Source: a virus. From it: a DNA stretch of 64,000 nt. Made by a program: the position numbers and the translations under genes. The stretch is taken from positions 40,287-104,286 of the IMG/VR virus record IMGVR_UViG_3300037258_000352; one strand, 5' to 3'. Below are positions 3,459 through 50,214 of the stretch, piece by piece; positions within the stretch are counted from its first letter, which is position 1, and each line of letters begins with the position of its first letter. The notes under the pieces were generated by a model. It was not told where the DNA came from. It did no database searches and worked only from the letters and a program-made list of their open reading frames with translations.

Positions 3459-3689
3459 GCCGCCCACGCGAGCAGTCCCGCATACACTGCTTCCTCGACC
3501 AGTTCCGGGTCCGGGATGTGGCGGATGAACTCCCGCTTCGCGCCGTCGTCGTGTTTCCCACCCGACTCGACCCGGATCGACCCGTACCCCAACAGGCGTT
3601 GCACGTAGGTCTGCTCCACCGTCAAATCGGTGTGCTCGCCCCCTGCATCTCCAGCCAACTAGTCCACGTCGTCGTGCACACAACCTCAC
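3455..3689 (-). pseudogene. Truncated or frameshifted bacterial PH-domain (bPH_2-like) protein
   Basis: DLTVEQTYVQRLLGYGSIRVESGG...IRHIPDP resembles the C-terminal half of bPH_2; upstream RRGLVG is in another frame; in-frame TAG at 3661-3659. Confidence 0.45.
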
Positions 3690-4138
3690 CTCCACCTGTT
3701 AGCGCGGTCGATGGACGCACCAACAGCCTCATCAACCGTGGGGTAGATATGGATCCCACGACGGGTGGCCAGTTCCCGGAGATAGGCGCGGGCACGGTTT
3801 AAGTCCTTCAACTCGCGCCCTGTGATGGTCTGGCCGTCGATCACAGTTCCGTCGGTGATGTTGTGGATGACGAGCAGGGCGTCGTACGAGTTGACGGTGG
3901 CCACGAACTCGGTCGCCTCCAGCATCGACGCGATGGCCCGGGTCTGGTGGTCGATGACGAACAGCACCTCAACGGACGCGATCTTCGCGTCGGCTTCGGC
4001 CTTCACGAGTTCTGGGGACCAGTCCTCAACTTGAGGGTTGTAGTAGGACACCCCCGCTGCCTCTAGCAGGGGGATGGCGATGTCCGCGCGCCACGTGGTC
4101 GGGTTGCAGCTTCCGCCTAGGAACAGGTGTGGCCTCAT
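3686..4138 (-). CDS. Nucleoside 2-deoxyribosyltransferase-like (Raw-like) protein
   Basis: LFLGGSCNPTTWR...YYNPQVEDW...LFVID...SMLE; start set by SD at 4157-4148. Confidence 0.8.
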   Translation of the reverse strand: MRPHLFLGGSCNPTTWRADIAIPLLEAAGVSYYNPQVEDWSPELVKAEADAKIASVEVLFVIDHQTRAIASMLEATEFVATVNSYDALLVIHNITDGTVIDGQTITGRELKDLNRARAYLRELATRRGIHIYPTVDEAVGASIDRANRWR

Positions 4139-4147
4139 TCGTTTACT

Positions 4148-4254
4148 CCTCCGTGTCTGTGCTGGCCCGCACCAGCAACCCCCAGGGTAAACCTGGGTGG
4201 TCCCAGCGTCAACGCTTACAACCTGTGTATCGGCCGGGACCACCACCGCGTTAC
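4148..4254 (-). promoter_or_regulatory. Tandem ECF + housekeeping promoter, hairpin, extended SD
   Basis: GTAAC(4254-4250)-N17-CGAT; TTGACG(4212-4207)-N17-TACCCT; TGCTGG-TGCGGG-CCAGCA; GACACGGAGG. Confidence 0.8.
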
Positions 4255-4981
4255 ACCCGCAGGTCCTCCCCAGGACACCGAGCCCGGAGACCCACCGGGT
4301 AATACCACCGGATCGTCGCGAAATCCTCCCCGGGAGCCAACAGTCCCAGGCGGGGTGTGTGACACCGGGCGCACCGCTGCTCGTACTCGGCGTGGTCACC
4401 CAACACCCCACGCGCCCCGGGTTCCCACACATGCCCACACATGCCCACCCAGGTCCGAGACAGCGACCGGGGTCGCCGGGGCCGAGGGTGGAGCGCCCAC
4501 CGGCACGATCACATAATCCGGATCGAGGGTCACCCCGTGGGTGTCGTAGGCACCGCACCGCAACGGCCGGCGGATCACGACGCCACCCGCCGGATCCGCA
4601 CCACCACCGGCACGCCACCCGCACCGACCCGCCCTGCTCGTGGTGGACCTCGAAACTGTCATCCGGGAGCCGGCTCCACGCCCGCGCGGTGCTCCACCAT
4701 CAACACATCCACCACATGCCGAGTCAACCGCGGCGCGTACGGGTGCCCGTCATGCGGCGCGTCCCACGTCATCCACGGGATCCCCTGCTGCGCCTTCCCC
4801 AGGTCCGGGCGCAGCACGTGGGGGGCACCGCAAGTTCGGCATCCTGCGAGCCATTCCCACGGCACGTCCCCACCCAGCGTGAGGATCCCCACCTGGTGGG
4901 CGCTGCTTACCCCACTCGCGGCGGCCGGGCCCACCGCAGGTTCTGGGGTTCCGTCACCCACCGGGTGACTACCACCTGTCG

Positions 4982-5476
4982 TCACGATCCCGGCGGCGTC
5001 CCCAAGAGCCGCAACCCATCGACGTCGACGACGACCCGGACCCCCGGCGCCAACACCCCACCATTACGCGCGGCAGTCGCCGCCCCAGACGGCTCCAACC
5101 CCGCAGACACCAAGACGTGCATCAACTGCGCCACCTCCACCTCACCAGCCGGCCACGACCGTCGACGACCCGACCCGCAACCAGGGTTCGCGGCCTGCAG
5201 GTAACCGCTCCGCGTCCAGTAGTCCAACGTCCGGTACGTCAACCCCGGGACCGCCTCCTGAATCTCCCGGTACGACACCGGGGCCTCCGTCACGACGGAG
5301 ATGCACTTCTCGCACCGCCGGCCGCGCCCGGTGTCCCGCCACGGCACCACCCGAGCTGGTTCCCCGCACAGGGTTTTCGCGCCGTCCACCGCGTGCGCGA
5401 CAACGAATTCCGGGTCAGCGTGGCGACCTACCGTCTCCCGCCACACGACTGGTGTGTCCTCCCCTGGCCCGGGCAT
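4982..5476 (-). CDS. MerR-type HTH DNA-binding protein with N-terminal Zn-finger-like region
   Basis: GLTYRTLDYWTRSGYL...GSGRRRSW; H..C..CxxC upstream. Confidence 0.7.
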   Translation of the reverse strand: MPGPGEDTPVVWRETVGRHADPEFVVAHAVDGAKTLCGEPARVVPWRDTGRGRRCEKCISVVTEAPVSYREIQEAVPGLTYRTLDYWTRSGYLQAANPGCGSGRRRSWPAGEVEVAQLMHVLVSAGLEPSGAATAARNGGVLAPGVRVVVDVDGLRLLGTPPGS

Positions 5477-5965
5477 CAGCGGGACCCCGCGAGGAGGTCC
5501 CCCGAGTCACCGGAATGAGCTGGCCCACGCACCGGGGCGACTGGCTCATCCTTGGGTGGGTTCGGGCAGAACCCCGGCGTCGACCCACACGCCACCACCG
5601 GGCCCTCCCGCATCACCGCCCCCGCAGCGCCACCCACAACCCCCACCGCGAACGCCAACACCAGCGACACCACAAACACCACAACCTGCCGGTTCACCGC
5701 CACCGCGGACCTCCTAACCGACTGAGCAAATCCACGAGGGGACCCACCTCAGTCACCGGTACCGATATTTGCCTCGTCGGATCCGAGTCAAGGTAAAACG
5801 ACCAAGCGTCTCGTTCCGGGCTCCGGATCACGATCAGCGTCGATGGTGCCCCATCATGCCGCCGACCGGGTATCGCCACCCGAAGCTGCTCATTCTGCGG
5901 GACCTCCGCGTGCGGGCCAGGCAGGTCAACCAACTGCACGACACCTCCCCTATCGGAACGGACTG

Positions 5966-6208
5966 TCACCATCGGTGGGTGTCCGCTGTCCACCCGAAGA
6001 ACCGGGATAAACGACGCGGGTACCAACCTCGCCCACCACATTTACGGCACGCCCCCCGCACCACCACCCGGAAGATCAACGAAACCGCTTTCCGCCACCC
6101 AGCACCGTTGCACCGCAGGCACGCCTTTTCGGGACTTCGCCACGCGTTGTAGAGCATCGCCCCGGACCCACCGACAACGGCGACACCGGCCGCCTCAATC
6201 ACGATCAT
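5966..6208 (-). CDS. Small membrane protein with DnaJ-like CxxCxGxG zinc finger
   Basis: TM segment then CLRCNGAG / CRKCGGRG. Confidence 0.7.
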   Translation of the reverse strand: MIVIEAAGVAVVGGSGAMLYNAWRSPEKACLRCNGAGWRKAVSLIFRVVVRGACRKCGGRGWYPRRLSRFFGWTADTHRW

Positions 6209-6239
6209 GTCCACCGTGGACCTCCCGGGTCCCTCGTGT

Positions 6240-6405
6240 GTCACGGGCACCTCCCGTGACACCGTCACGGCTAGTCACGGGCCGTGTCACGGCGTCGTCA
6301 CGCGGGTTTGTCACGGGCTGTCACGCGTGACAAACCCGGTGACCTCACACCCACCGCCCGCACCGTCCCCCCCGACTGTCACGGCTGTCACAGGGCCCGT
6401 GTCAT
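6240..6405. repeat. GTCACG(G) direct-repeat array, candidate clt / TraB recognition locus
   Basis: Direct copies at 6240, 6264, 6274, 6286, 6297, 6310, 6320, 6378, 6387 and inverted copies at 6254, 6326, 6339; intergenic, downstream of traB. Confidence 0.75.
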
Positions 6406-6851
6406 ACCTTGCTCGCGGCCATACTCCTTCGCTGGTGCAACATCCGCGCACCGCGCTCCAGCCTATGGAAATTGCGCATCAACAGCGGGGTCACTTCCCG
6501 CCGAGCGGTACGTAAATCGCCCACACCGAACAGTCGCCTAAATTCGGACAGGTCATCACACCCGGAGTCGTCTCCCCATGACTGGGAGTACCTGACGTCG
6601 TAGCCGTGGACTTTGTGGAGCCACAGGGCGATGGCTTGGACCCCAGCGACGAGGACGAGCCCGTATTCGTGGGGTTTCGCGTCGCAGTCGTTCCCGGAGA
6701 GTTCCACTTTCCCTTCCGCGCCGCCGCGGATGGGTTGGACATGCGCTTTCCGGGTTCGGATTTTCAGTTCCGTCGCGGTCAACGCATGCCCAGCTTCGTG
6801 GATAGCGACACCCATGAGCAGATCAATCTCACGGGGTGGGGTGGGGGTCAT
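6402..6851 (-). CDS. Zinc metallopeptidase-like protein (HExxH; M41/M50-like)
   Basis: AIHEAGHA, LVAG, GCDDL motifs. Confidence 0.75.
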   Translation of the reverse strand: MTPTPPREIDLLMGVAIHEAGHALTATELKIRTRKAHVQPIRGGAEGKVELSGNDCDAKPHEYGLVLVAGVQAIALWLHKVHGYDVRYSQSWGDDSGCDDLSEFRRLFGVGDLRTARREVTPLLMRNFHRLERGARMLHQRRSMAASKV

Positions 6852-8293
6852 GCTGCTGCCTCATTCCCCCCGACCTGCGGGTTCCGCACCGGAATCCACC
6901 CACGGTCAGACTTCTCGATCCGACCGTCCTTGGCCATGTACTTATAGAGACTGGCCCTTGACCACCCGCAATCAGCGAGGAGGTTGATAAACGAGTTCGC
7001 TTCCAACCGGTCCGTGCCGCTGGCCAGGAACTCGGTGACTACTTCGGCGAGGACCTCCGCGAACTCCTCCGGGGTCAGACCGTCTTTCGGGGGGTCCCCG
7101 ATCATCCGGGCGACTGTGGGGTGGGTGGGGGCGTCCGGGTCAGCGAGTTCCGTGTCATCGTCAAGGTCGGATGCGTCGAGCTCGAAATCAACGTCTCCGT
7201 CGTCGTTGGTGACGATGATCCGGTCTCCGACCAGGGCCAGTTCCGACTCCTCAAGCTCGGGGTCGTCGTCGTAGAGCTCCTCGAGCGCGGCGAGGTACTC
7301 CGCGTCGTCGGGATCGAACCCATCGATTTCGTCGTCATCAGCGTCGACGTCTATGGGGGTCGGTGCGACGGCTTGCGCCGCAGCGACCAACGCCGACCCA
7401 GTCACAGGACCGGGGACGATCATCCCGTTCTGCTTGACTAGGTCCAACGGGGTGATGTGAGTGGTCCACAAGTCCCCCAGCGAATCTGCGGTGACCTGGC
7501 ACATGTCCCCGAGGTTCGCGGCGACATACGCGGCAGCCGACGCGAACGTGTGCTCACCGACCCCATCGGACCACGACCGGTGGGTCATCAACTTCTCCCG
7601 GACCGTCATCCCGGGACCGACGAGGTAGTGCATCCCGGGGTCGTCGGCGCCCCACTGCGACGGTTTCGCGCCGGCGTTGACGACTTCCTCTGGGAGGGAG
7701 TACTGGTCGTATTCGGAGTCGGTGATGCCGTACGCGCGGTAGGACCCCATCTGGTTCCGGACGGTGGTGGGGATGTTGTCCCAGGTTGGTTGCTGGATGC
7801 TGTACGTGAGTTGCCCACCAGCGGACCGCAACGCGACCGCGAGCCCGACGATCTCCTTGGACTCGGCCAGTCTCCACGCCTCTTCGATGTGGATCCGCAG
7901 GAACCGCAGGCTCGATGACGGGGCCCACTGCTTGAGACCTTCCCTCGAGAGGTGGCTGGTCCGCTCCGGCAGGGTGCGGTTGAGGAGTTGCCGCAGGAGC
8001 CGCTTCGCGCGACCGGGGTCGATCTCGTACATCTGCAGGCACCCAGCGACGTCTTGGTAGGACTGGATGCCTTTGACGGTGTCAATCAAAATCTGGTCGA
8101 TGCGCATCGCACCGCAGGTCAGCAGGACCGGGAGTTCCCCCCACGTCTTCCCGGAGCCGGTGGTCCCGGAGATCAGGCAGTGGACCCCACCCTCGGGTCG
8201 AGCGATTCTGAACAGGCCGGTTTCCCCGTCGGAGCGGCGGCTGACGGGGATCCCGGAGAACGGGTTCGCGCCCTTGAGGAGCTTGATCTTCAT
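6848..8293 (-). CDS. traB: FtsK/SpoIIIE-family TraB DNA translocase, motor plus C-terminal wHTH part
   Basis: Walker A GTTGSGKT, Walker B LRIHIEEA, RSAG..SIQQP, acidic linker, C-terminal SRASLYKYM; AGGAG SD before ATG 8293. Confidence 0.8.
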   Translation of the reverse strand: MKIKLLKGANPFSGIPVSRRSDGETGLFRIARPEGGVHCLISGTTGSGKTWGELPVLLTCGAMRIDQILIDTVKGIQSYQDVAGCLQMYEIDPGRAKRLLRQLLNRTLPERTSHLSREGLKQWAPSSSLRFLRIHIEEAWRLAESKEIVGLAVALRSAGGQLTYSIQQPTWDNIPTTVRNQMGSYRAYGITDSEYDQYSLPEEVVNAGAKPSQWGADDPGMHYLVGPGMTVREKLMTHRSWSDGVGEHTFASAAAYVAANLGDMCQVTADSLGDLWTTHITPLDLVKQNGMIVPGPVTGSALVAAAQAVAPTPIDVDADDDEIDGFDPDDAEYLAALEELYDDDPELEESELALVGDRIIVTNDDGDVDFELDASDLDDDTELADPDAPTHPTVARMIGDPPKDGLTPEEFAEVLAEVVTEFLASGTDRLEANSFINLLADCGWSRASLYKYMAKDGRIEKSDRGWIPVRNPQVGGNEAAA

Positions 8294-8295
8294 GA

Positions 8296-9123
8296 CTACT
8301 TCACTCCTACGAGCAGACCGGGCCACGGTTGGGCATCTTCGATGGGGTTGAGGTGCATGACGGTGACGTCACAGATTTGGGCGTTGCGGGACTTCGGGCG
8401 GGCGTAGACCTTCATTGATCCGGGGGGGAACCCGTGCGCGGACTCCACCGAAGCGATGTCCCGCTGGAACTCCAGCATCGTGTCCCCCGGGGCGAGCCGG
8501 AGTGTGCCTTCGCTGCGGAACTCCGACACCCGCCGCAACGCGAGGGACGCCCCGTCGTGGCCGGCCATCTTCATGGGGGTGTCGGGTGGGTTCTGGGCGG
8601 CGAGGATCTCCGCGAGCTCCGCGACCCGATGCCTAGCGTTGATCCTGGTGTTCCAGATCGCGGCCAACGCGGACCCACCAGCGAAGAACGTCGCGATGGT
8701 GAACCCGTGGGTGGAGAACACCCACCCCGGGTTACCGGTGGTGAAGGTGATGAACCCGGTGATGGTGCACAGCGACAGCCACGCCCCCCCGAACGCGGTG
8801 GTGGCTACCCCGTGCCAGCGGGCGGTCCCGGTGTGGGACCGTTGGGTTTGCCACACCGAGTACGTCATCCCGATCGTCGCGACCATGATCAGCGCCACGG
8901 TCCCCGCCCGGCTCCACGCGGTTTCAACGAACGCGTGGAGCACGGTCCCCGCTAGCCAGAACAAGCCGAGGACGACCCACGGGATGAAGTGGACGGCGTG
9001 GTCGTGCAACGCGTGCCCGACCACGCCTCCGGATCCGGTGCGGGCACCCGTCCCAGCGCTGGGACCGCGCGGAGGAGCCGGCGGGCGTGTCTGCCGGGTG
9101 CTCGACCTGAATCCCTTACCCAT
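8296..9123 (-). CDS. Membrane protein equivalent to the N-terminal membrane domain of TraB
   Basis: About 4 TM helices; ends NPIEDAQPWPG, resembling the motif that precedes the motor in actinomycete TraB. Confidence 0.7.
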   Translation of the reverse strand: MGKGFRSSTRQTRPPAPPRGPSAGTGARTGSGGVVGHALHDHAVHFIPWVVLGLFWLAGTVLHAFVETAWSRAGTVALIMVATIGMTYSVWQTQRSHTGTARWHGVATTAFGGAWLSLCTITGFITFTTGNPGWVFSTHGFTIATFFAGGSALAAIWNTRINARHRVAELAEILAAQNPPDTPMKMAGHDGASLALRRVSEFRSEGTLRLAPGDTMLEFQRDIASVESAHGFPPGSMKVYARPKSRNAQICDVTVMHLNPIEDAQPWPGLLVGVK

Positions 9124-9138
9124 TTCCGTTCCCCTGTC

Positions 9139-9531
9139 TTACGCGGCGTTACGCCGACGGTTGCCGCCGTTGTTCTGATTATTGTTCTGTCCACCCTGAC
9201 CGTTGTTCTGGCCCTTCCGGGAACGGCTCGGGACGAACACGGCGCTGAGGATCCCTTCCGCGTTGCCCATCATTTTCGAGCAATGCGACATCAGCAACGC
9301 GGACCGGTGAAGGTCCCGAGCGATTCGAGCTGCCGCTTGCTCCTTCTCTTTCTGCGACATCAACGCCCCCCGCGACGGGGAATGAGCGAGACGCTTTTTA
9401 GCGACCCGGGAAATGATTTGCATCTCCATTCCAGCGTTGAGGAACAAGTTAGCCATGTCGTGGATCCATGCGCGCATCGCACCGGGGTCACGCAATACTG
9501 CTTCGTCCGCTGTGCGCCTCGTGATACCCAT
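9139..9531 (-). CDS. Putative TraA-like plasmid transfer protein
   Basis: Helical basic protein immediately upstream of traB; position typical of AICE traA. Confidence 0.55.
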   Translation of the reverse strand: MGITRRTADEAVLRDPGAMRAWIHDMANLFLNAGMEMQIISRVAKKRLAHSPSRGALMSQKEKEQAAARIARDLHRSALLMSHCSKMMGNAEGILSAVFVPSRSRKGQNNGQGGQNNNQNNGGNRRRNAA

Positions 9532-9575
9532 TGCCTTTTACCCTCTCTCGATTTCCTTGGTGTGCCTGACTTCGA

Positions 9576-10079
9576 TCAGCCGTTGCAGCCGGCGCAATGG
9601 ACGGGGATCCCCGCGCAACCCTTCCCGCTGCGGGACATGGCCAGCAGCATCACCAGCGCGAGGACAATCCCTAACCCGACTGTCCCCTCAGCGACCGCGG
9701 CGCCGTGGACCCCGAACCACGTTCCGATCCCGTGGATGATCCGGTAGAGCCCGTACATTCCCAGCGACGCGCTGCCGGCGATCAGGGCGTATTTCACGAT
9801 CGGGCCGGCGGCGATGACGTAGTCGATGGCTTCGACTTGGGATCCGTCGGGGATCCCGATGGGGATGGTGGGTGCGCCTGGGGTGACGAACACCCGGTAG
9901 GTGACCTGCCCCGGGGTGACCGGGGTGAGTTGCTCCGGGGTGCGGACCGCGACACCCATCTCCTGGTACCGGCCCGCCGTGTACATCACGTCAGCGAGGT
10001 AGCCGTTCAGGACCCGTTCCTCGATCTGGGTGATCGTGGTGGTCGGGTGGGTGGTGGGGATGAGCTGGGTGGGTGACAT
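9576..10079 (-). CDS. Spd-like membrane protein of transfer module
   Basis: 2 TM helices and C-terminal CAGIPVHCAGC. Confidence 0.55.
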   Translation of the reverse strand: MSPTQLIPTTHPTTTITQIEERVLNGYLADVMYTAGRYQEMGVAVRTPEQLTPVTPGQVTYRVFVTPGAPTIPIGIPDGSQVEAIDYVIAAGPIVKYALIAGSASLGMYGLYRIIHGIGTWFGVHGAAVAEGTVGLGIVLALVMLLAMSRSGKGCAGIPVHCAGCNG

Positions 10080-10103
10080 GGCGGGGTCTCCGGGGTGGGT
10101 GGG

Positions 10104-10970
10104 TTACGCCGCGAGGACGCGGGCGAGTTGGCGGGCGGTGGTGTCGGTGACCCGGTACCCCACCGGGAGGCGGGTGGGGAGCTCAGTCATGAGGACCCGA
10201 CGGCCGGTGGTGAGGCCCCGCTGCCCCCGCTCGTCCCGGAGTTCCCGGGCGGCGGCGTAGATGGTGGGGTCCACCCCGGGGGGTGGGGTGGTGGCGTTCG
10301 GTGTGGGGACGAGTTCCAGCTCCACCCCGGGGTGCGGAGTCCCGGGGTGGGCTGGCTCGTCCCCCGCGGGGGTGTGGGTGGGGGGCACCGTCACCCGGGG
10401 GAAGTCCCCCGCGGGGTCGAGGTCTGGGGTGGGGTCACCCGTGGTGCGGTCCGAGAGGCCCCGGAGGTCGGCCAGGAGGGATTCGAGTTCCGCGTCGACG
10501 TCGTCGAGTTCACCCGTGGGGGAGGTGTCCAGCTCGGTGCGGATCTCCGCGAAGTGTCGACGGACCCGGGGGGCGGCTTCCGCTAGGAGCAGGATCAGGC
10601 CGGGGGCTACGGAGTGCAGCAGGATCCCCGACGGGACCGCTGCGGCGGCGGACACCCAAATGTTCATCGCCCAGGTCGCGATGCCGGCGAACCACATGGT
10701 CCCGGTGAGCCAGGGTTCTTTCCGGCCGTAGTCGGCGAGGATGCTCCCGAACACGATCGCGGTCCCGAGGGTGATGGAGGCCATTGGGTCGAGGAGCCAC
10801 GCGATCCACCACTCGAAGCTGTGCCAAGGGTGGCCTGCGGATGCGAATCGTTGGACGTTGACCATCGTGAACACGAGGGCCAGCACAGCGACGGCGGTCA
10901 GGGCGTAGGCACCCCAGCGGCCCATGCGGGTCAACCATTCCGCCTCGTCGCGCTGGTTGGTGGTGTCCAT
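10104..10970 (-). CDS. SpdA/DUF2637-like spread membrane protein
   Basis: 4 TM helices (IAWLLDPM, WAMNIW, LHSVAP) followed by Pro-rich linker and HTH-like tail. Confidence 0.65.
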   Translation of the reverse strand: MDTTNQRDEAEWLTRMGRWGAYALTAVAVLALVFTMVNVQRFASAGHPWHSFEWWIAWLLDPMASITLGTAIVFGSILADYGRKEPWLTGTMWFAGIATWAMNIWVSAAAAVPSGILLHSVAPGLILLLAEAAPRVRRHFAEIRTELDTSPTGELDDVDAELESLLADLRGLSDRTTGDPTPDLDPAGDFPRVTVPPTHTPAGDEPAHPGTPHPGVELELVPTPNATTPPPGVDPTIYAAARELRDERGQRGLTTGRRVLMTELPTRLPVGYRVTDTTARQLARVLAA

Positions 10971-11137
10971 CGGTGCTGGTCCTTTCCCCGTAGGTTGTTT
11001 GGTGGTGCCGTCCGGTCGAGGTCTGTAATCGGCGCCCGACCGGACAGCACCTTGTGATGTTACATCCCTACGTGTTAGCACATGCGACACCCGGTCACGT
11101 TACATACTGAATACCCAGTATAGGTAGACTCCGTGAC

Positions 11138-11974
11138 ATGACGGGATCAATCGGGGCCGGGCTACGCCGGCGACAACTCGCGGAGATACTCACCGAGCTC
11201 CGCAAGACCAGCGGTAAAGACCAGGTCGCCGCTGCTGCGGCGTGTGACTGCTCCCGACCTCAGATCAGCAATTTCGAGTCCGGGAGATACGTCCCGAGCC
11301 GGTTGGAGCTCCCCGCCCTGCTGGAGTGCTACGGCGCGCTGGACCGGCTCCCTGAGCTGGAGGAACTCCGGGCCGCGGCGAACGAACCAGGCTGGTACTC
11401 GACGTATGGCCTGCCGGTGTGGTTGCAGTCCTATGTGCGGCTTGAGGACGACGCGATCCAGGTTCGGTGTTTCGCGTCTGGTCTGGTCCCGGGGCTGCTG
11501 CAAACCCAGGACTACGCCCGGACGGTTCAGCAGGAACACGGGGCCAGCACCCCGGAGGTTCAGCGGCGGCTCGCGGTCCTCGCGGGACGGCAGAAGCGGC
11601 TAGGGATAGGGATGACCCTGTCCGTGGTGGTGTCGGAGGCGTTGCTGCACCTGACCGTGTGTATGGGTGAGGTGGGGGTGGAACAGCTCGCGAGTCTCGC
11701 GGCGACGAGGGTCGCGGAGGTCCTGGTCCTGCCGTACTCGGCGGCCCTGACGCGGGGGATCGGTCACTGGACGGTCCTCGACTTCCCGATGGGGGTGTCC
11801 CCGGTCGCGTATGAGGAACATGCGATCGGTGGGCACCTAGCGGATGATCGGGGACTGGTAGGGAAGTTGGCCTCGCTGTATCAGGAGCTGCACTCCGCGG
11901 CTCTATCAGTGGAGGACAGTGCAACGAAGATCAGGCAGGTCATGGGTCTAACCAAGGAAGGGACAAGGCGATGA
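11138..11974 (+). CDS. XRE HTH + DUF5753 regulator (WhiJ/Scr1-like)
   Basis: RRRQLAEILTELR...ISNFESGR, GWYSTY, LVPGLLQTQDYAR; probably leaderless (TAGACT 7 nt before ATG). Confidence 0.9.
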   Translation: MTGSIGAGLRRRQLAEILTELRKTSGKDQVAAAAACDCSRPQISNFESGRYVPSRLELPALLECYGALDRLPELEELRAAANEPGWYSTYGLPVWLQSYVRLEDDAIQVRCFASGLVPGLLQTQDYARTVQQEHGASTPEVQRRLAVLAGRQKRLGIGMTLSVVVSEALLHLTVCMGEVGVEQLASLAATRVAEVLVLPYSAALTRGIGHWTVLDFPMGVSPVAYEEHAIGGHLADDRGLVGKLASLYQELHSAALSVEDSATKIRQVMGLTKEGTRR

Positions 11975-12192
11975 AGATCGAAGGCGTCGACGTTGGGCAG
12001 GTTGGGGAGTTCGTGAAGGCGACCGCGAGCGAGTCGGTGGACAAGTGTGTGTCCGTCGCGGTGACGAGCACGGGGCATCGGGTGGTGCGGCATTCCACGC
12101 GGGTCGGTGGTGCGGAGATCCCGTTCGATCGGGATGAGTGGTCCGCGTTCCTCGTCGGGGTCCATGCGGGTGAGTTCGACATCGCCGACTGA
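11971..12192 (+). CDS. DUF397 protein (BldB/Scr2-like)
   Basis: FVKATAS...CVSVA...VRHS...EWSAFLVGVHAGEFD; ATGA-coupled to the XRE gene. Confidence 0.9.
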   Translation: MKIEGVDVGQVGEFVKATASESVDKCVSVAVTSTGHRVVRHSTRVGGAEIPFDRDEWSAFLVGVHAGEFDIAD

Positions 12193-12257
12193 CCGGTGTG
12201 GTGTGGGGCGGTCCCTTCGCGAGACGCGGGCGAGGGGACCGTCGCCGTTTCCGGGGT

Positions 12258-13264: not shown

Positions 13265-13332
<68 letters not shown>

Positions 13333-13336
<4 letters not shown>

Positions 13337-13722
13337 ACCGTAAACCGTTCACCACCGACACCACTTTCCTGTTCGTTGACGGCCCCCCTGACGGCCGGAG
13401 GTTCCCGATCACCCTGGCGTGGTCACCGGAAGCACCGTTGGAGGTTTGGTTCCTGTTCCCCCACCCGCACCCGTGGTGGATGGTGTCCCGGGACCTCCTC
13501 GCGGGGGGCCTGACCACCGACGCTGGTCAGGGGGATGTGAGAGTCAGCCCGCACCGCCCGGCCGGTGTCAATATCGTGCTCCACGGTCGGCAGTTCAGTG
13601 TGGCGGTGAGGGTATCCCGCCGGATGTTGCGGGTGTTCCTGAACAAGACGTTTCAGCGGATCCCCGCCGGGCAGGAGGTGATCCCGGAGCTAGACCGCGA
13701 GTTACAGGAGCTGACTGGCTGA
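13333..13722 (+). CDS. SsgA-family sporulation/cell-division regulator
   Basis: PITLAWSPEAPLEV.F.F...W.VSRDLLAGGL...GQGDVRVSP...FLNKT...PAGQE. Confidence 0.9.
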
Positions 13723-28515: not shown

Positions 28516-29895
28516 TCATCGGGGGAACTCGTCCCAGGTTCGGCCGTCGAGGTCCCGGCCGCCGGCTTTAGGGGTCCGCCCGCCCCATTGTTTGAACAGG
28601 AACGGGACCCGCGCTGTCGTGGCCTGGTCCCGTAGCGCCCGGACCCAGTCCGGGTTCATCGGGCGGGTCACGGCACCCGACTCGCCCCCGACGATGACCC
28701 AGTCGATCCGGTGGCCGTAGGTGCCGGCGTGGGAGGACTTGCACTTGCAGTCGTCGACGCGGTCCACGAACCGGTTAGCGATCGAGCACCAGCCCTTATC
28801 GAGTCGCGGCGCGAGGGTCATGAACCGGTCGAGGTCCACCGCGGTCAGCAGCGGCTCACACGACAGGAAATGCACCGCGGCGGGGGTGTCCAGCAACGCG
28901 GGGATCCGAAGCTCGGCGCGCTGCTGGTCTTCGACGCTGACCCCCAACCAGACGCAGTCAAGTACCCGACGCTCACCCGGAGACGTAGGTCGGCCATGGA
29001 TCGGCGTTGACCATTGCCGTCCAGTGAGCACGTTGCGTACCTGCGTGTCGCTAACCGGGTAGTCCTTCGCGATCGAATAAGCCGATTCGCCGGCCTCGCC
29101 GCGTGATCGAATCGTCCCGACGTCGCGTTGAGTCAGCTTGGACCACGACTGCCCCGACCCGTGTTCGATGCGGTCCCCCCAGTTTGCGACCTGCGTCCCC
29201 CACTGCAAGTTCGACCACCGGTTGTCGGCCGCGTCGCCATTGAGGTGCCGAGCCTGCTCATCTGCTCGGGGCGCCCGCGAGAACGCGTGAAGGACGGCCC
29301 GGTGCACGAGCACAGACTCACCTCTCCGCGGCGATCCCTCGCGGTGAAGACGGACCCGCATGTGCCCTTGTTCGCCTTCCTCCAGCCGCATCCCGGATCT
29401 CGTGTCGGCCCGCTTGCCGAGGATCTGGCCGCTGGTGGTGACGACGTATCCAGGGAAGCCGGGCACGGGCGCCTCCAGGTAAGGCTCCTCGATCTCCCCT
29501 GAGTACCAGCGGCGAACCCACGAACGCATCCGGCCGTGCCGTTTAGTTAGGATCTGATACCTGTGCTGCGGGGCGGCCCCCATTGACTGCCAGACACGGG
29601 CGATGAACTCGTCAGGAACGTCCTTATGAAACAAATCCGACATCGAATTGACGAATATCAGGCGGGGTTTTTTCCACCGCAACGGTATCGACAGGGCGTC
29701 GTCGTGGATCGTGAGCCCGAACCCGGGGCCGCTGGTCCGCGGGTCCCCATCGGTTTGGTATTTCGCCTGGCCCATCCCTTTGAGCCGGCCGGCCATGGTC
29801 AGGGCGTAGCAGTTGTCGCAACCGGGGGTCACGCGGTCGCATCCGGTGGTGGGGTTCCAGACCTTGTCGGCCCACTCGATCGCGGTGTCAGCCAC
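28516..29895 (-). CDS. DUF5131 (phage Gp37/Gp68, radical-SAM-like) protein with inserted HNH domain
   Basis: IEW...WNP..GC..V.PGC.NCYA, FVNSMSDLFH, LTKR, WLGVSVEDQ, SCEPLL, WVIVGGESG, FKQWGG. Confidence 0.9.
   Translation of the reverse strand: MADTAIEWADKVWNPTTGCDRVTPGCDNCYALTMAGRLKGMGQAKYQTDGDPRTSGPGFGLTIHDDALSIPLRWKKPRLIFVNSMSDLFHKDVPDEFIARVWQSMGAAPQHRYQILTKRHGRMRSWVRRWYSGEIEEPYLEAPVPGFPGYVVTTSGQILGKRADTRSGMRLEEGEQGHMRVRLHREGSPRRGESVLVHRAVLHAFSRAPRADEQARHLNGDAADNRWSNLQWGTQVANWGDRIEHGSGQSWSKLTQRDVGTIRSRGEAGESAYSIAKDYPVSDTQVRNVLTGRQWSTPIHGRPTSPGERRVLDCVWLGVSVEDQQRAELRIPALLDTPAAVHFLSCEPLLTAVDLDRFMTLAPRLDKGWCSIANRFVDRVDDCKCKSSHAGTYGHRIDWVIVGGESGAVTRPMNPDWVRALRDQATTARVPFLFKQWGGRTPKAGGRDLDGRTWDEFPR
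29008..29478 (-). mobile_element. In-frame NUMOD4-HNH-HTH endonuclease-like insertion
   Basis: PVPGFPGYVVTTSG, VHRAVLHAF, RHLNGDAADNRWSNLQWGT..AN, SKLT...IR; boundaries approximate. Confidence 0.8.
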
Positions 29896-36039: not shown

Positions 36040-36836
36040 ACCGGGAGCTGGGGAGCGTCTTCTTTCTTCTTCACTGGCAGCGCGGGCTCGAACACCCGGA
36101 CCTGGGTGCCATGGTGCTGACCGTTGTCCTCGTCGAGCTTCGCCGCGCCGAACGCCGCGTGCCACATTGACCCGACCTCCACGACCACCGGTCGCCGTTG
36201 GTGGTTCTGGTACAGCGCGGGGGTCATCTTCCGGCGGTTCGCGACCTTCGCGATGATCTCCAGTGACCCCGCGTCGAGCCCATACCCAGCACTGGCCGGG
36301 ATCGGGTTCCGATGGTCGTCCTGGGGGACGATCGACGGGTCCGGCTCCAGCATCCGCGTAATACCGGTGGGGTAGTCGTCGAGGTCCTGCAGCGGGACGA
36401 CCATCGAAATCCCCCGAGCTCGGGTGGTGCGGTCCTCGGACACCGTCAACGTGTCCCCGGTGATCTCGATCCGGGTTTGGTGGGGAACACCCTTCGGGGC
36501 GGTTTTCCCTTTCGCGGTGAACGTTTTGATCAGAGACTGCGCGTCCTGCACCGTGACCAAAACCGGTTTGTGGAGCCGACCATCGCAGGGGCAGTGCCCT
36601 TGGGAGGCTACGGTGAATCCGTTGGTGCTCGTGGCGATCAACACATCCGACGGGACCGTGTCGATCAGGGTCGCCCCGTCGTCCTCATCTTCGGACGTGA
36701 ACACGACGTCGGTGTAATCAGTGCTCAGCAACACCGTCGCCAGGGTCGGGAACTCATCCGGTGTGTCACACGCGGTCAACACCGCGTCCGTGAGTAGACC
36801 CGTGAACTCCCGAGTCGATAACGATAAACCACTCAT
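36036..36836 (-). CDS. Divergent beta-clamp-like protein
   Basis: P.L..V.L...LIATSTNGF, DDYP motif; weak similarity only. Confidence 0.5.
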   Translation of the reverse strand: MSGLSLSTREFTGLLTDAVLTACDTPDEFPTLATVLLSTDYTDVVFTSEDEDDGATLIDTVPSDVLIATSTNGFTVASQGHCPCDGRLHKPVLVTVQDAQSLIKTFTAKGKTAPKGVPHQTRIEITGDTLTVSEDRTTRARGISMVVPLQDLDDYPTGITRMLEPDPSIVPQDDHRNPIPASAGYGLDAGSLEIIAKVANRRKMTPALYQNHQRRPVVVEVGSMWHAAFGAAKLDEDNGQHHGTQVRVFEPALPVKKKEDAPQLPV

Positions 36837-38358: not shown

Positions 38359-39489
38359 TCAGTCCCCCGCGGCGTCCTCCGGTGCCGAGGGTGGTTCCTG
38401 CGCCAGTTCCTCGAGCGTGACCATCAGATCACCAACCAAGCGGTGCTGACGCATCAACGACACCATGTATCCGACCTGGTCGGAGGTCAGGTCCGTGACC
38501 GCCTTGAGTGGTTCAGGTAAGTCCAGGGCCCGGGTGAGGATCCGGAGCCGCTTCTCCCGCTGCTTACCCTCGGTCCCGATCCCCGCAGCGAGGAACAGGT
38601 CGTACATCATCTGGACCCGCTCCGTAGCGTCGTCCGGGATCGGCGCCAGATCCGCCGAGTCCACCACCTCGTTCTCCCCGGCCGGCGGCTCCACCGACGA
38701 GATCTGCACCGGGCCCACTGCCGCGACGGTGGCGGGGAACTCCTCGTCGATGGTGGACGCCCCGTCCCGGATCTGGGAGTAGGCCTCCAACAGTTCCGCG
38801 AGGTCCAACGCGTCCCATTCGTTGGTGGGTCGGCCACCGAGCCGCGCGACGAGCCGTTCCTTCCGGACCCCGAGCTCCTCCCACTTCCCGACCGCGTTAC
38901 GGATCTTCTGGGGCATCGGGACGGTGCCACCACCAGTCAACGTCTGGTGACACAACTCGACGGCGCGGTCCACGAACCACAGGGGCAGGATCGTCGCGAT
39001 CGTTTCCCGCAGGTGCCGCGACGCGATACTCGTGTTGTTCGTCATGATCGACCCCATGTCGGTGAGGTCCTCCGGACCGGTATCAGACTTGTCCCGTTTG
39101 TGTTCCACGACCACGATCCGCGACGACCGGGAGTTTTTCTGCGCGTCCCACGCGTAAGCCAGCAACTCCGACTTACCTGGGGTGCGGGACAGCTCAGCCA
39201 TGCCCCATTGCGTGTTACCCCAAATCCGGGCCAACTCTTTCATGAGGTGGATCGTGGGACCGGTGATCTGCTTCCCACCCTTAGGGACTTTGTAGATCGC
39301 TTTCCGGGCCATCGCCGGCAGGCGGCACAGTTGCTCCATCTCCTCCTGCACCGCCACCAAATCCCGGGGGACTTGCTGCGCGACGAGGATCGCGGCGTAC
39401 ACCTCCGCGGCGACCCGGTTCCCCTCGATCATCGTGCTCTGGCTCGCTGCCCCGTGCGCACCGTGGGGAAGAGCAACGCTCGTTGTCAT
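38359..39489 (-). CDS. Putative single-strand annealing / recombination partner protein
   Basis: A.Q.PRD...Y..P.GG..ITGP.I...ELAR.WGN; adjacent to RecE-like gene. Confidence 0.6.
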   Translation of the reverse strand: MTTSVALPHGAHGAASQSTMIEGNRVAAEVYAAILVAQQVPRDLVAVQEEMEQLCRLPAMARKAIYKVPKGGKQITGPTIHLMKELARIWGNTQWGMAELSRTPGKSELLAYAWDAQKNSRSSRIVVVEHKRDKSDTGPEDLTDMGSIMTNNTSIASRHLRETIATILPLWFVDRAVELCHQTLTGGGTVPMPQKIRNAVGKWEELGVRKERLVARLGGRPTNEWDALDLAELLEAYSQIRDGASTIDEEFPATVAAVGPVQISSVEPPAGENEVVDSADLAPIPDDATERVQMMYDLFLAAGIGTEGKQREKRLRILTRALDLPEPLKAVTDLTSDQVGYMVSLMRQHRLVGDLMVTLEELAQEPPSAPEDAAGD

Positions 39490-41468: not shown

Positions 41469-42227
41469 TCACCCGACGCCACCGAACGTGAGGACACCCT
41501 GCGACAGTCGGGCTGTCACCGCCCGTTCACACTGCGCTTCCCGCTTCTCGAACCCGATCGCACGCCGGCCCGTCGCTCGAGCTGCGACCAGCGTGGAGCA
41601 GCTACCAGCGAAGCAATCAAGGATCAGACCACCCAGTGGACAGCCGTATTCAATCAGAGGCTCAAGGATCCCCCGTGGCTTCTCAGTCTCGTTAATAGCG
41701 GTGCCGTGCATGGATCGTGAGTAGATGACCGAGCCCATCATGCGAGGACCACCGTTGTGACTCACATAGGAACCAGAGTCGATGTGCCCGGTGTGGGCCG
41801 GTTGTGCCTTGCGACGGACCTGCTTCTTGACTGCATCCTGCGTCGTTGGGGCGAGATGGTGAACGTCCGACCACGGACCTCGGTACCAGTGCGTTGCGTG
41901 CTCATGCATTCGCCGGAATCGGTCAGCGTGGAACGTTGACCCGTTGTGCTTCTCCCACACCACGTCCTGCGAGAACTTCCAGCCCGTGAACTCATCCCGC
42001 CTATCGAGGAACATCCGCATCGACCCGAAACACCACATCGAGTTCCCCGGGATCAGCGACGGCCACCCAGCGGGCCACCGGTCCCAATCCAGACTCGTCT
42101 CCCCGTACGGGGGATCACACACGGTGAGGTCCGGGACGATCCCCAACTCGGGGAGGATGTCCCGGAAGTCCCCGCAGTACAACGTGACCTCGTCGTCGGC
42201 GTAGTAGGGCTCCGGGCGGGTCACCAT
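41469..42227 (-). CDS. DNA N6-adenine/N4-cytosine methyltransferase (beta-type)
   Basis: DPPY, TEKP, LDCFAGSCST. Confidence 0.9.
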   Translation of the reverse strand: MVTRPEPYYADDEVTLYCGDFRDILPELGIVPDLTVCDPPYGETSLDWDRWPAGWPSLIPGNSMWCFGSMRMFLDRRDEFTGWKFSQDVVWEKHNGSTFHADRFRRMHEHATHWYRGPWSDVHHLAPTTQDAVKKQVRRKAQPAHTGHIDSGSYVSHNGGPRMMGSVIYSRSMHGTAINETEKPRGILEPLIEYGCPLGGLILDCFAGSCSTLVAARATGRRAIGFEKREAQCERAVTARLSQGVLTFGGVG

Positions 42228-49248: not shown

Positions 49249-50214
49249 GTGAGCGCACCTGAACGGTTAACCAGCGGAAACAACCCAGTAGCGGTGCAGG
49301 TCGAGGAACCGAAACCAATCTGGTGGAGGTCGTTCATCGCGCAGCTCACCGGCCGGACACTGGACCGCGCTGTCGAGGTCGACGAGGTCGATCAGGATGA
49401 GGCGGTCGACCCCGAGTCCACGGAACCCGACACCACAAACACCATCGCTGGTGACGATGCCCCGGTTGGTGAACCGCTAGAAGCGGAACTCGTCGACGAG
49501 ATCCCCGCGCCAGCCGAGCCCGAGGTGCGGCCGGCGGACGAGACCGAACTCGAAGTCCTCGACGCGGAATTGGTTGAAGACCCACCGACCGTCGCCGCGG
49601 TCCCCGAGATAGCCGAGGTGGCCGACACACCGGTGGTGGAGATCCCCGACGTCGTTCACGTTCCCGAGGTCGAGGAGGTGGAACCGGAACCCGCTGCCGA
49701 GGTGGTTGAGGTCCCCGAGCTGGACGTTGCCCCCGCCACCGTGGTGTCGGAGCCCGAAGTTGAGGAGCCGGTCACTGTTGTTGAGGCACCGACACCCGAG
49801 TTGGAGGCCACCGACCCGGAGGTCGCAGACCCAGAGCCCAACGCAACCGTCTACGTGGAGGTCGAGGTAATTCCGTGTGACGACACCCGGGCCCCGTCTG
49901 GGCCGGTCAAAGATCGTGATGATCTGACGGAACGGTGGGTAGACGAACTCCGCAACGGAGGCCACCGCCAAGCACACGGGACGTGGGAAGACCGGGGCGT
50001 ATTCGGCGGCAAGAGTGAGTGCACCCTGCAGGTCGCCATCAACACCTATGACATCCCACTCGGTGAGCTGCGGGACAAGTACGGGGATCGGTTCATCGGG
50101 GAGGTACTCACCCGCAACGACATCGAGAGGCAGTCATTCGATCAGATCGCCGACTACATCGAGCGGACGCAACTGTCCCGGTCACGCCGGAAAGAAATGG
50201 AGATGGAGCGATGA
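49249..50214 (+). CDS. Acidic E/P/V-rich protein with a phage-type C-terminal domain
   Basis: WV.ELR.G...Q...C.L.V...ND...SF.QIADYIE. Confidence 0.7.
   Translation: MSAPERLTSGNNPVAVQVEEPKPIWWRSFIAQLTGRTLDRAVEVDEVDQDEAVDPESTEPDTTNTIAGDDAPVGEPLEAELVDEIPAPAEPEVRPADETELEVLDAELVEDPPTVAAVPEIAEVADTPVVEIPDVVHVPEVEEVEPEPAAEVVEVPELDVAPATVVSEPEVEEPVTVVEAPTPELEATDPEVADPEPNATVYVEVEVIPCDDTRAPSGPVKDRDDLTERWVDELRNGGHRQAHGTWEDRGVFGGKSECTLQVAINTYDIPLGELRDKYGDRFIGEVLTRNDIERQSFDQIADYIERTQLSRSRRKEMEMER

Follow-up and report, generated by a model that had tools for sequence, protein, structure and literature searches.

The TraB-clt-Spd regions of Streptomyces plasmids such as pSVH1, pIJ101 and pWTY27 are a known class; their clt regions contain short direct repeats that are bound by TraB (PMC4447253, PMC3583192). 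The plasmids use these regions to drive dsDNA from one hypha to another. There is also experimental precedent for a plasmid that is at the same time a phage, pZL12/phiZL12. A tra gene is reported to be needed for its conjugal transfer (Zhong et al. 2010, J Bacteriol 192:3747, via PMC3583192, PMC4487206 and PMC7157519), and the account of this work in PMC3583192 has transfer reportedly depending on that gene together with two neighbours. We found by profile comparison that pZL12.71c is a remote member of the TraB family (hhalign 98%, E 1.4e-13).

The locus described here (Table 1) lies in a window of 64,000 nucleotides from IMG/VR record IMGVR_UViG_3300037258_000352, a closed genome of 104,286 bp with an exact end overlap of 127 bp. 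The record is classed as DTR in IMG/VR with a CheckV completeness of 100%, and a gene runs across the circle junction of the assembly. TerL, portal, MuF/protease, capsid, major tail and tape measure genes are on the same contig, as the original prediction had claimed for terminase and tail genes, and a GH25 endolysin is encoded as well; the carrier is a complete tailed phage of 104 kb. The nearest matches of its TerL are Rhodococcus and Gordonia phages, at about 35%. We take the host to be a filamentous, sporulating actinomycete because the genome carries an SsgA-like gene and a WhiJ-like/DUF397 pair and because the nearest plasmid relatives of its TraB are mostly from Streptomyces (45 of 51). 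The original prediction was of a plasmid- or AICE-type transfer module in a phage; TraB, the repeat array and the virion genes bear it out, while several of its gene labels do not stand. In our judgement there is a somewhat better than even chance that positions 5966-12192 form a native, conserved TraB-type module for dsDNA transfer or spread.

Table 1. Features of the TraB locus, with positions counted from the first nucleotide of the window.
Feature	Position	Strand	Basis or remark
Zinc-knuckle membrane protein, 82 aa	5966..6214	-	two CxxCxGxG motifs, C-terminal RRLSRFFGW
CGTGAC array, candidate clt / TraB recognition repeats	6230..6395		10 words plus CTGTGACAG variant
HExxH protein, 149 aa, putative metallopeptidase-like	6402..6851	-	HEAGH motif, residues 17-21; weak
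TraB C-half, FtsK-like motor and winged helix	6848..8293	-	NF041214, Walker motifs, AF2 model
TraB N-terminal half	8296..9123	-	membrane anchor and soluble linker domain; NF041214 and phrog_24831 matches
Small soluble protein, 130 aa, Gly/Asn/Gln-rich tail	9139..9531	-	gene call
Small membrane protein, 167 aa	9576..10079	-	Spd-like by position only
DUF2637-like integral membrane protein	10104..10970	-	candidate spread (Spd-type) protein, module's first gene
XRE/WhiJ-like (Sco1979-family) regulator	11138..11974	+	NF058600 E 2.8e-30, below equivalog cut-off
DUF397 (BldB-like) small protein	11971..12192	+	Pfam PF04149, 30.3 bits against a cut-off of 24, at 12010-12162

We establish here the identities of these genes, the split of traB and its conservation, and the array with its linkage to traB. 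The predicted traB is indeed present, in two adjacent reading frames. Positions 249-626 of the NCBIfam model NF041214 (plasmid_TraB) match 6848-8326 on the minus strand (E 1.3e-43), and the C-half has a Walker A motif (GTTGSGKT) and a Walker B-like motif (IHIEE) that are conserved across 16 homologues. In its AF2 model (pLDDT 77.7), residues 1-290 match the FtsK motor 2IUS (E 3.9e-11) and residues 408-468 fold as three helices and two strands, the topology of a wHTH. The frame upstream had been labelled traA-like, an identity that we reject: its product, 242 aa long from a start at 9024 or 275 aa from 9123, matches positions 5-211 of NF041214 (E 4.6e-14) and positions 43-253 of phrog_24831, and is actually the N-terminal membrane half of TraB. 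With scores of 149.5 and 51.8 bits, both halves are far below the NCBIfam equivalog cut-off of 800 bits and we therefore consider this TraB a distant relative. Docking of the N-half on the C-half was predicted with an ipSAE of 0.88 (best control 0.00), a contact agreement of at least 98% and a partner pLDDT of at least 81, in a test whose mark is reached by 58 of 80 solved complexes and 2 of 110 mismatched pairs and which the halves of split genes tend to pass. From conservation and modelling we predict that the split TraB is functional.

The repeat array claimed at the outset comprises ten CGTGAC words within 6240-6383, eight direct and two inverted, mostly 10-13 bp apart. Shortly beyond traB, analogous arrays were present at 25 of the 30 IMG/VR loci and on all three plasmids inspected, and such an array appears, from these comparisons, to be a signature of the family. 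By analogy with plasmid clt regions, the CGTGAC array is a candidate for the clt of this module. We count against a role in transfer that the array does not abut traB, a 149-aa reading frame lying between them.

The two genes previously called spd-like fared differently. The first encodes a protein of 288 aa (328 aa with an alternative GTG start at 11090) with three to four hydrophobic segments in its N-terminal 130 residues. It is not matched by the Pfam DUF2637 HMM, and we nevertheless regard it as a remote relative of DUF2637 for the following reasons: (i) DUF2637 makes up 29 of its 30 nearest clusters in the ESM Atlas (score 0.91, 198 shared features, structural TM 0.50); (ii) its family aligns by hhalign with the DUF2637 proteins flanking traB on three Streptomyces plasmids (90.8%, E 1.2e-6, 112 columns). 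It also matches phrog_25954 (E 1.7e-6). The second is just a small membrane protein, with a C-terminal TM segment at residues 128-146, a GC3 of 0.88 and no match in Pfam, PHROG or NCBIfam. The frame at 9139-9531, which did not figure in the original gene list, has no significant match in the same three collections either; its position is the one that small reading frames hold on plasmid pFP4, where they separate DUF2637 from traB. That two putative helper genes have no detectable family is a further point against the transfer reading. The start of the gene labelled a peptidase overlaps the traB stop; the HEAGH motif and a sub-threshold match to Pfam Peptidase_M50 (E 0.032) support the label weakly. 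Around the motif the product faintly resembles SpoIVFB (E 1.4), and a homologue with 25% identity is found elsewhere in phage G001. The predicted Zn-finger membrane gene was confirmed, its product having a single TM segment (residues 3-21) and a match to Pfam DnaJ_CXXCXGXG (E 4e-5) that is below the curated cut-off. A reading frame of like layout (TM, two CxxC, ...RFFGW), with weak sequence likeness (BLASTP E 0.022), lies directly 3' of traB in G001.

The WhiJ-like regulator is transcribed divergently from the TraB module and is a candidate for its controller; homologues adjoin traB modules in G001 and in four other loci (L026, L039, L040 and L050). DUF397 proteins are the usual partners of WhiJ-like regulators. 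The module had been described as interleaved with genes that use the shared phage leaders. What we found is that GACACGGAGG leaders and GTAAC-N17-CGAT promoters flank it, ending at 4254 and restarting at 12258, and that neither of these phage signals is present in the 8-kb island between.

With regard to function, we infer DNA binding, pumping and any transfer from these features, as follows. The two TraB polypeptides, one a membrane anchor and the other an FtsK-like motor with a winged helix, would assemble into a hexameric membrane-bound pump; the winged helix would dock on the CGTGAC array, acting as clt, and the motor would drive the phage genome, in circular or replicating form, through septal cross-walls or the contacts between hyphae. 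The DUF2637-like protein and the other small membrane proteins may assist, as Spd proteins do for plasmids, and expression of the module is probably governed by the divergent WhiJ-like/DUF397 pair. A phage with a TraB pump, a probable docking array and membrane helpers may therefore spread without virus particles. Spread by mycelial conjugation is plausible, with pZL12 as precedent. Since integration and partition genes (including ParA/ParB) were not found in the phage genome, we rate spread of the replicating genome within an infected mycelium as no less likely than plasmid-like mating. We also count the missing integrase and partition genes against the transfer reading, as they raise the questions of how a genome, once transferred, would be maintained in a living recipient and of what use conjugation would be to a lytic phage.

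A phage that is short of such genes would benefit from another way to persist, and it is possible, if unlikely, that TraB and the array position or segregate phage DNA inside the host, for example into prespore compartments for carriage in spores, a task like that of SpoIIIE/FtsK. Consistent with this idea, TraB is related to FtsK/SpoIIIE, and the SsgA-like gene and the WhiJ-like/DUF397 pair are of sporulation or cell-division type. However, among named proteins those closest to this TraB serve in plasmid transfer, and the genes are ordered as in plasmid tra/spd loci. The two readings overlap mechanistically, DNA being moved across septa in both.

We consider it distinctly unlikely that the module acts on DNA other than that of the phage or in conflict (mobilising host or plasmid DNA, excluding plasmids, AICEs or superinfecting phages, or modulating growth in a Kil-like manner), with the array an operator for a regulator and not a clt. 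Plasmid traB/traR pairs behave as kil/kor systems (PMC4447253), the regulator is tightly linked to the module, and the array is intergenic in a promoter-like position upstream of the zinc-knuckle gene. On the other hand, of the 95 CGTGAC words on the two strands of the 104-kb genome no more than three fall in any other 200-bp window; the array is unique within the genome, as expected of a cis site marking the phage's own DNA. Lineage-specific word arrays also follow traB in nearly all relatives, real plasmids included, and CGTGAC accompanies related TraBs in two phages whose backbones are unrelated. The second is G001, a distant phage of 146 kb with 49.5% GC (against 65.9% here), its own DNA polymerase, a fused TraB and the same regulator, in which CGTGAC is arrayed seven times about 1 kb downstream of traB.

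We think it very unlikely that a captured plasmid or AICE left the module behind as an inactive relic, with its TraB a frameshifted pseudogene. TraB is in two frames, the island is without phage promoter and leader signals, and the GC3 of three genes (g58, g59 and g62; 0.71-0.72) is below the genome mean of 0.82. The break is tidy, though, with the ATG of the C-half 2 nt past the TAG stop of the N-half and a GGAG (SD sequence) upstream. In 12 relatives the N-half is likewise a separate frame, of 237-281 aa, always ending ...PWPGLLVG(V/A/T)K and with its C-half on the same contig; both halves are kept open in about 12 relatives at 49-86% identity, with intact Walker motifs and the break at the identical residue. 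Furthermore, split TraBs form a single old, monophyletic group (SH-aLRT 100) nested in a clade of fused forms. Judged from these sequences, the split is one conserved evolutionary event and not an error.

It is highly improbable that the module belongs to a separate AICE or plasmid which was inserted into the phage or was fused with it through an assembly error. The contig is metagenome-derived, and many of the TraB-bearing 'provirus' records in IMG/VR could be cases of a prophage next to an AICE, but the assembly forms a closed circle whose junction is spanned by a gene, the split TraB recurs on a relative contig of 110,561 bp, and the synteny of regulator and module recurs in G001. An AICE delimited by att sites and a chimeric assembly had been named as what would refute the original prediction; both are unlikely because no att-like direct repeats flank the module and there is no compositional break (GC 0.659, equal to that of the genome; tetranucleotide r 0.965 against 0.974 +/- 0.011 over all windows). 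As predicted, neither an integrase nor RepSA was matched anywhere in the genome, nor was a resolvase, the RepSA result being a weak negative as its control search was silent too. These observations support the view that the module is native to this complete tailed-phage genome. The search for TraB-plus-terminase genomes proposed earlier returned at least 27 IMG/VR records that pair TraB with capsid or terminase genes.

How does this locus compare with known systems? In AICEs, too, dsDNA is transferred by a single protein of the TraB type, and Spd-like membrane proteins are present (PMC2440964); in contrast to them the phage has no integrase, att repeats or RepSA-type replication gene that we could find, and 99 kb of phage surround the module, which is not an AICE. 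The cultured Streptomyces phages Jaresh and AndoPrime (PMC13587820) and the Bacillus phage TsarBomba group have FtsK/SpoIIIE-like genes of the same ATPase superfamily. Tblastn over 50,697 deposited phage records gave no actinophage match for the TraB of this phage, of G001 or of plasmid pFRL2; the FtsK-like genes of deposited phages are therefore not close TraB relatives. Phages phiC31 and VWB carry SpdB2-like genes of the spread-protein class (PMC4447253). The full set of TraB, array and DUF2637 is not described for any of these phages in the literature consulted.

The Streptomyces plasmids, compared directly through pFP4, pFRL2 and pDSM40587, share with the phage an FtsK-like TraB with an N-terminal membrane part, a motor and a C-terminal winged helix (PMC4447253), a short-repeat array just past traB, and a translationally coupled operon that includes a DUF2637-type membrane protein and small reading frames. 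On all three, traB is flanked by DUF2637 genes, and on pFP4 the order is that of the phage (DUF2637-like, two small frames, TraB). Identity is about 32% and confined to the motor, however, and the phage differs in its two TraB polypeptides, in the extra HExxH frame between traB and the array, in having neither a GntR-type TraR/KorA nor a plasmid replication gene, and in that the module sits inside a virus.

Like this phage, pZL12 (phage ZL12, GQ919031) is a tailed-phage genome of roughly 90-100 kb from a filamentous actinomycete, with an FtsK/SpoIIIE-type tra gene adjoined by membrane-protein genes. It differs in having ParA, ParB and an integrase/recombinase, none of which we found here, and a GntR regulator in place of the WhiJ-like one. 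No array comparable to the CGTGAC array was seen next to its tra gene, its virion genes are unrelated, and pZL12.71c is only distantly related to the split TraB (no match by tblastn). A TraB on a phage is of a known kind; what is new here, besides a genome in which no integration or partition genes were found, is a TraB split into two polypeptides.

The conjugation-type module lies in a complete and novel tailed actinophage, and the original prediction, which had placed spd- and tra-like genes on one contig with terminase and tail genes, is largely confirmed once several gene labels are corrected. The window is the terminal 64 kb of one 104,286-bp contig whose ends share an exact 127-bp overlap, with no further repeat; a gene spans the end junction and both of its parts align to a single contiguous stretch in another phage. 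IMG/VR places the record in its DTR (direct terminal repeats) class with a CheckV completeness of 100%. PHROG searches found portal, MuF/protease-like, major capsid, major tail, tape measure and large terminase (TerL) genes, and Pfam a GH25 endolysin. What defines a member of the Caudoviricetes (TerL, portal, major capsid, tail/tape measure and lysis genes on a closed genome) was all present, with a TerL that shares only ~35% identity with terminases from phages of Rhodococcus and Gordonia. The window also encodes a lambdoid-style replication set (O-like initiator, DnaC-like loader and intein-bearing DnaB), a sigma factor and several methylases.

Several other genes deserve mention. The dnaB gene is interrupted by a LAGLIDADG/Hom_end intein-like insert and the DUF5131 (phage Gp37/Gp68-type) protein bears an HNH insert. 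A Mom-family protein (Pfam, 1.8e-48) is encoded just upstream of the terminase region; a tRNA-Gly(TCC) overlaps the 3' end of its ORF, so that one of the two assignments, ORF end or tRNA, is in doubt. A nucleoside 2-deoxyribosyltransferase-like protein is encoded as well, and a cation-efflux (CDF) transporter and a NUDIX hydrolase are auxiliary genes.

Coordinates of the features discussed (window positions unless marked otherwise)
Feature	Position	Strand	Size	Remark
Nucleoside 2-deoxyribosyltransferase-like	3686-4624	-		
Signal-free island	4255-12257		8 kb	
g58	5966-6214	-	82 aa	last gene of module
Spacer	between g59 and g58		190 bp	
CGTGAC array	6240-6383			within spacer
g59	6402-6851	-	149 aa	
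g60	6848-8293	-	481 aa	TraB C-half
g61	8296-9123	-	242-275 aa	TraB N-half
g62	9139-9531	-	130 aa	
g63	9576-10079	-	167 aa	
g64	10104-10970	-	288 aa	first gene of module
WhiJ-like regulator	11138-11974	+		Sco1979 family
DUF397 protein	11971-12192	+		
SsgA-like	13270-13722	+		
DUF5131 protein	28516-29895	-		
DnaB helicase	42221-44614	-		
Acidic ORF	49294-50214	+	306 aa	
Coupling protein-like ATPase	50211-51878	+	555 aa	
Mom-family protein	57011-57703	+		
tRNA-Gly(TCC)	57608-57680	+		
CDF transporter and NUDIX hydrolase	36071-36718; 38525-38998 (genome)	-; -		
G001 traB	142734-145163 (G001)	-		fused
G001 CGTGAC cluster	141595-141805 (G001)			

Independent gene calls reproduced exactly the gene borders of the original prediction between 10970 and 5966, all on the minus strand, and included one gene, g62, that it had omitted. 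Judged from its sequence, the TraB at the core of this module is intact though split between two genes, and the split is conserved and monophyletic. NCBIfam NF041214 (plasmid_TraB) describes the Streptomyces-type conjugative dsDNA translocase and has a curated equivalog cut-off of 800 bits; g60 matches it at model positions 249-626 (E 1.3e-43) and g61, which has hydrophobic segments, at positions 5-211 (E 4.6e-14). Since the scores (149.5 and 51.8 bits) are under the cut-off, we regard the protein as a distant family member and not an equivalog. A 700-position PHROG likewise covers both ORFs and, because both profiles continue from one to the other, the label 'traA-like' first given to g61 is wrong; this gene is the membrane half of TraB. 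Thus the N-terminal transmembrane region is present, but on a separate upstream ORF, and instead of a single polypeptide of ~640-770 aa we see two ORFs in different frames: the N-half ends in ...PWPGLLVGVK followed by TAG, and the C-half begins two bases further on with an ATG that is preceded by GGAG. The C-half is a protein of 472-517 aa in 11 relatives (49-84% identity) and the N-half one of 237-281 aa in 12; all N-halves terminate at identical residues and several share a contig with a C-half, one contig being 110,561 bp long. Fused TraB proteins, of 702-809 aa, are more distant homologues. In a maximum-likelihood tree, from which the intein-bearing P0008 and one truncated row were excluded, the split forms make up a single clade (SH-aLRT 100) within a clade (100) that also holds fused forms. 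P0008, an 831-aa relative of the C-half, was considered as a fused TraB and rejected: its surplus length is an intein, an insert of ~340 aa exactly in the Walker A loop (GMTGAGK...HNS) with the classic position and end signature.

Walker A (GTTGSGKT), Walker B (IHIEE) and many further positions of the C-half are invariant across homologues, and Pfam FtsK_SpoIIIE matches it weakly (E 0.002). Because a search of the C-half against PDB sequences gave no meaningful match, a structure comparison was needed. In the AlphaFold model (pLDDT 77.7) residues 1-290 are predicted to form an FtsK-type motor, for which the best structural match is E. coli FtsK (2IUS; E 3.9e-11, ~295 columns), followed by an acidic disordered linker and then by three helices and a beta hairpin (residues 408-468, pLDDT 74-86). 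In a controlled complex prediction the N-half's tail lay on the first strands of the motor with an ipSAE of 0.88, compared with 0.00 for the best control, a contact agreement of at least 98% and a partner pLDDT of at least 81; among solved complexes 58 of 80 reach the mark set for this test, and among mismatched pairs 2 of 110. As the halves of split genes tend to pass such a docking test, the result is to be read as compatibility and not as binding. The N- and C-parts of pSVH1 TraB interact too (PMC4447253).

With regard to the remaining module genes, g64 has 345 detectable relatives. Pfam DUF2637 (PF10935) had no match in the genome at E <= 1 and matched 0 of 91 g64 homologues, and direct BLASTP of g64 with a plasmid DUF2637 protein revealed no similarity. 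The g64-family profile aligns in the membrane core with DUF2637 proteins of three Streptomyces plasmids (hhalign, 90.8% probability, E 1.2e-6) and, in the ESM Atlas, g64 falls among DUF2637 clusters (score 0.91, 198 shared features, TM 0.50). A DUF2637 gene is at most two genes from traB on all three plasmids inspected, and the order on pFP4 (DUF2637, small ORF, small ORF, TraB) is the order in the phage module. We take g64 to be a remote DUF2637 homologue, placed relative to traB as on pFP4. Family membership was not detectable for g62 and g63. The putative 'peptidase' g59 has an HEAGH motif and only sub-threshold likeness to M50 and SpoIVFB. The g58 product combines a single TM segment with two CxxCxGxG knuckles; direct BLASTP found no similarity to the plasmid 'RRQRL motif zinc-binding protein'.

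The spacer between g59 and g58 contains ten CGTGAC words, eight direct and two inverted, spaced mostly 10-13 bp apart and located 465-610 bp past the traB stop. The genome has 95 copies of this word on both strands, with no more than three in any other 200-bp window. There is precedent for such an arrangement: published clt sites are short direct-repeat arrays, located beside the tra gene's 3' end or within it and bound by the Tra product, examples being the TGACACC repeats of pWTY27, the 9-bp repeats of pJV1 and the 8-bp repeats of pSVH1 (PMC3583192, PMC4447253). We consider the CGTGAC array a candidate clt and putative recognition site for TraB. Hexamer arrays (at least seven copies of one word) are found in 25 of 30 IMG/VR loci encoding TraB relatives, located 300-900 bp past the point where the motor match ends, which puts them at the traB stop or shortly after it, and plasmids pFRL2, pDSM40587 and pFP4 (3/3) likewise have an array just past traB. 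The words vary by lineage (GTGTCA, CTGACA, GGTGAC, CTGTTC, GGGTGA), with CGTGAC or CCGTGA in two loci.

The strongest argument for linking pump and array comes from a distant relative, G001 (IMGVR_UViG_3300049324_000002; loci L004, L006-L013), a phage of 146,490 bp with 49.5% GC and a CheckV completeness of 95%. It encodes portal, head protease, tail, DNA polymerase, RNR and helicases, and has only 13 proteins in common with the present phage. Its fused TraB has a motor 43% identical to ours, and seven CGTGAC words lie within 230 bp, ~1 kb downstream of traB. That the same word sits beside related pumps in two unrelated phage backbones of very different base composition suggests that pump and CGTGAC array belong together. 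Directly after traB is a TM/zinc-knuckle ORF with the layout of g58, although only a 9-residue tail aligns by BLASTP, and the same WhiJ-like regulator is present and, provided that the contig is circular, borders the module. To judge by the replication genes it carries, G001 too is probably without detectable integration/partition genes. Its portal is nearest to that of Microbacterium phage Magritte (40.6%), and its CDF transporter is 52% identical to that of the present phage.

The idea that the module is interleaved with genes using the shared phage leaders had to be abandoned: GTAAC-N17-CGAT promoters and GACACGGAGG leaders end at 4254 and restart at 12258, and therefore flank it. The intervening island, whose two flanks are dense in both signals, has none of the 12 GTAAC-N17-CGAT promoter-like sites and no exact GACACGGAGG leader, and it encloses the module together with its regulator, a WhiJ-like (Sco1979) protein that is transcribed, with its DUF397 partner, divergently from the module. 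Given the lack of these signals, the TraB module is probably controlled separately from the main phage programme. Regulator homologues adjoin traB modules in G001 and four further IMG/VR loci. A scan of the module for sigma-70 promoters and terminators gave nothing informative.

We also considered the possibility that the module is an independent AICE or the product of a chimeric assembly. The original prediction named delimiting att sites as the mark of an AICE; flanking direct repeats and an integrase were not found, and there is no tRNA target near the module. In the 104 kb, neither PF00589 and PF00239 (integrase, resolvase), in keeping with what had been noted at the outset, nor ParB_N, AAA_31 and CbiA (ParB and two ParA families) had a match, with positive controls throughout. 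The supposed lack of RepSA is less secure; PF20199 had no match in the 104 kb but this negative is weak since the control genomes were silent too. The replication genes found are phage-type (O-like initiator, DnaC-like, DnaB). Module GC (0.659) equals genome GC, and the tetranucleotide profile of the module correlates with that of the genome at r 0.965 (all 5-kb windows, 0.974 +/- 0.011). Composition, the lack of repeats and tRNA, the closed assembly and conserved synteny together make an independent AICE or a chimera unlikely, and we continue with a module native to the phage.

An SsgA-like gene, the WhiJ-like/DUF397 pair and the Streptomyces bias of plasmid matches to TraB (45 of 51) point to a sporulating filamentous actinomycete. 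TraB-type transfer is known solely from such organisms. The SsgA-like protein (Pfam SsgA, 1.2e-17), the product of a host-development (sporulation/cell-division) gene, has an N-terminal Thr-Gln repeat; a gene of this type has likewise been reported in Streptomyces phage Dagobah (PMC7650747).

Beside TraB, the same phage encodes a second conjugation-type motor, a membrane-anchored type IV coupling protein-like ATPase with Pfam matches to TraG-D_C (4e-20), T4SS-DNA_transf (3e-16) and TrwB_AAD_bind and with intact Walker A (GGPRQGKS) and Walker B (VVLDE) motifs. It belongs to no PHROG family and is essentially unmatched among 50,697 phage genomes. The ORF upstream of it encodes a highly acidic protein, and no relaxase was seen.

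It is plausible that this phage also spreads via TraB-type mycelial conjugation. A more specific scenario, which we put forward tentatively and think rather doubtful as it stands, is that in a phage without detectable integration/partition genes, as in its distant 146-kb relative, which has a DNA polymerase and RNR of its own, the two-subunit TraB and the CGTGAC docking array form a 'movement' system. Infection would then pass through a multicellular bacterium with no need for virions outside the cells: the pump would drive the replicating genome out of an infected compartment of the hypha, either across cross-walls or into adjoining hyphae or spores. Were the module functional, phages of filamentous bacteria would spread both by virions and by direct dsDNA pumping between connected or touching cells. 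Viruses and conjugative elements would then be less sharply separated, the understanding of plaque size, of host range and of Streptomyces defence would be affected, and there would be a parallel to the movement proteins of plant viruses.

There is precedent for this kind of element. pZL12/phiZL12 (GQ919031), a Streptomyces plasmid of 90 kb, can form plaques as well, and its conjugal transfer is reported to depend on its tra gene and two neighbouring genes (Zhong 2010, as cited in PMC3583192); like the present phage, it combines virion and packaging genes with a TraB-family tra gene on one replicon. That gene is pZL12.71c, a remote TraB-family member (hhalign, 98%); pZL12.20c, also considered, is unrelated to TraB and was rejected. 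Unlike the present phage, in which neither integrase nor ParA/ParB was found, pZL12 has an integrase, ParAB and a GntR regulator. FtsK/SpoIIIE-like genes have been noted in some cultured Streptomyces phages, and Thoma et al. 2015 proposed that actinophage SpdB2 homologues might aid the spread of phage DNA. The pairing of TraB with capsid or terminase genes recurs in IMG/VR: an alignment-based scan gave strong TraB matches in 34 records, many of them 'provirus' calls where an AICE could merely be a neighbour, and at least 27 of the 34 also match capsid/terminase Pfam families, including one 59.7-kb DTR genome. With pZL12, this co-occurrence establishes the kind of element, and its recurrence in metagenomic viral records indicates that it is not a one-off. 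Scans with alignment A1, used for TraB, picked up G001 as the sole IMG/VR match and, in metagenomes, a single contig at 30% identity; a scan of GTDB genomes and a single-protein scan of IMG/VR were both negative. Against 50,697 deposited phage genomes, neither blastn of 5000-12000 nor tblastn of the TraB C-half had a match, tblastn of the pFRL2 and G001 TraB proteins gave just weak P-loop matches in Firmicutes phages and, as none of these three TraB queries found an actinophage, the element is rare among cultured phages. What is distinctive here is the conserved two-gene TraB together with the lack of detectable integration and partition genes, to which the shared CGTGAC word and the second conjugation-type ATPase add. 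Relative to pZL12, the present phage contributes: (i) the occurrence of a TraB module in phages that have no recognisable genes for lysogeny or plasmid maintenance; (ii) a naturally split TraB, with the anchor apart from the motor, which should be useful for biochemistry and (iii) a CGTGAC-TraB motif-pump pair conserved over unrelated phage backbones, which makes the putative recognition directly testable.
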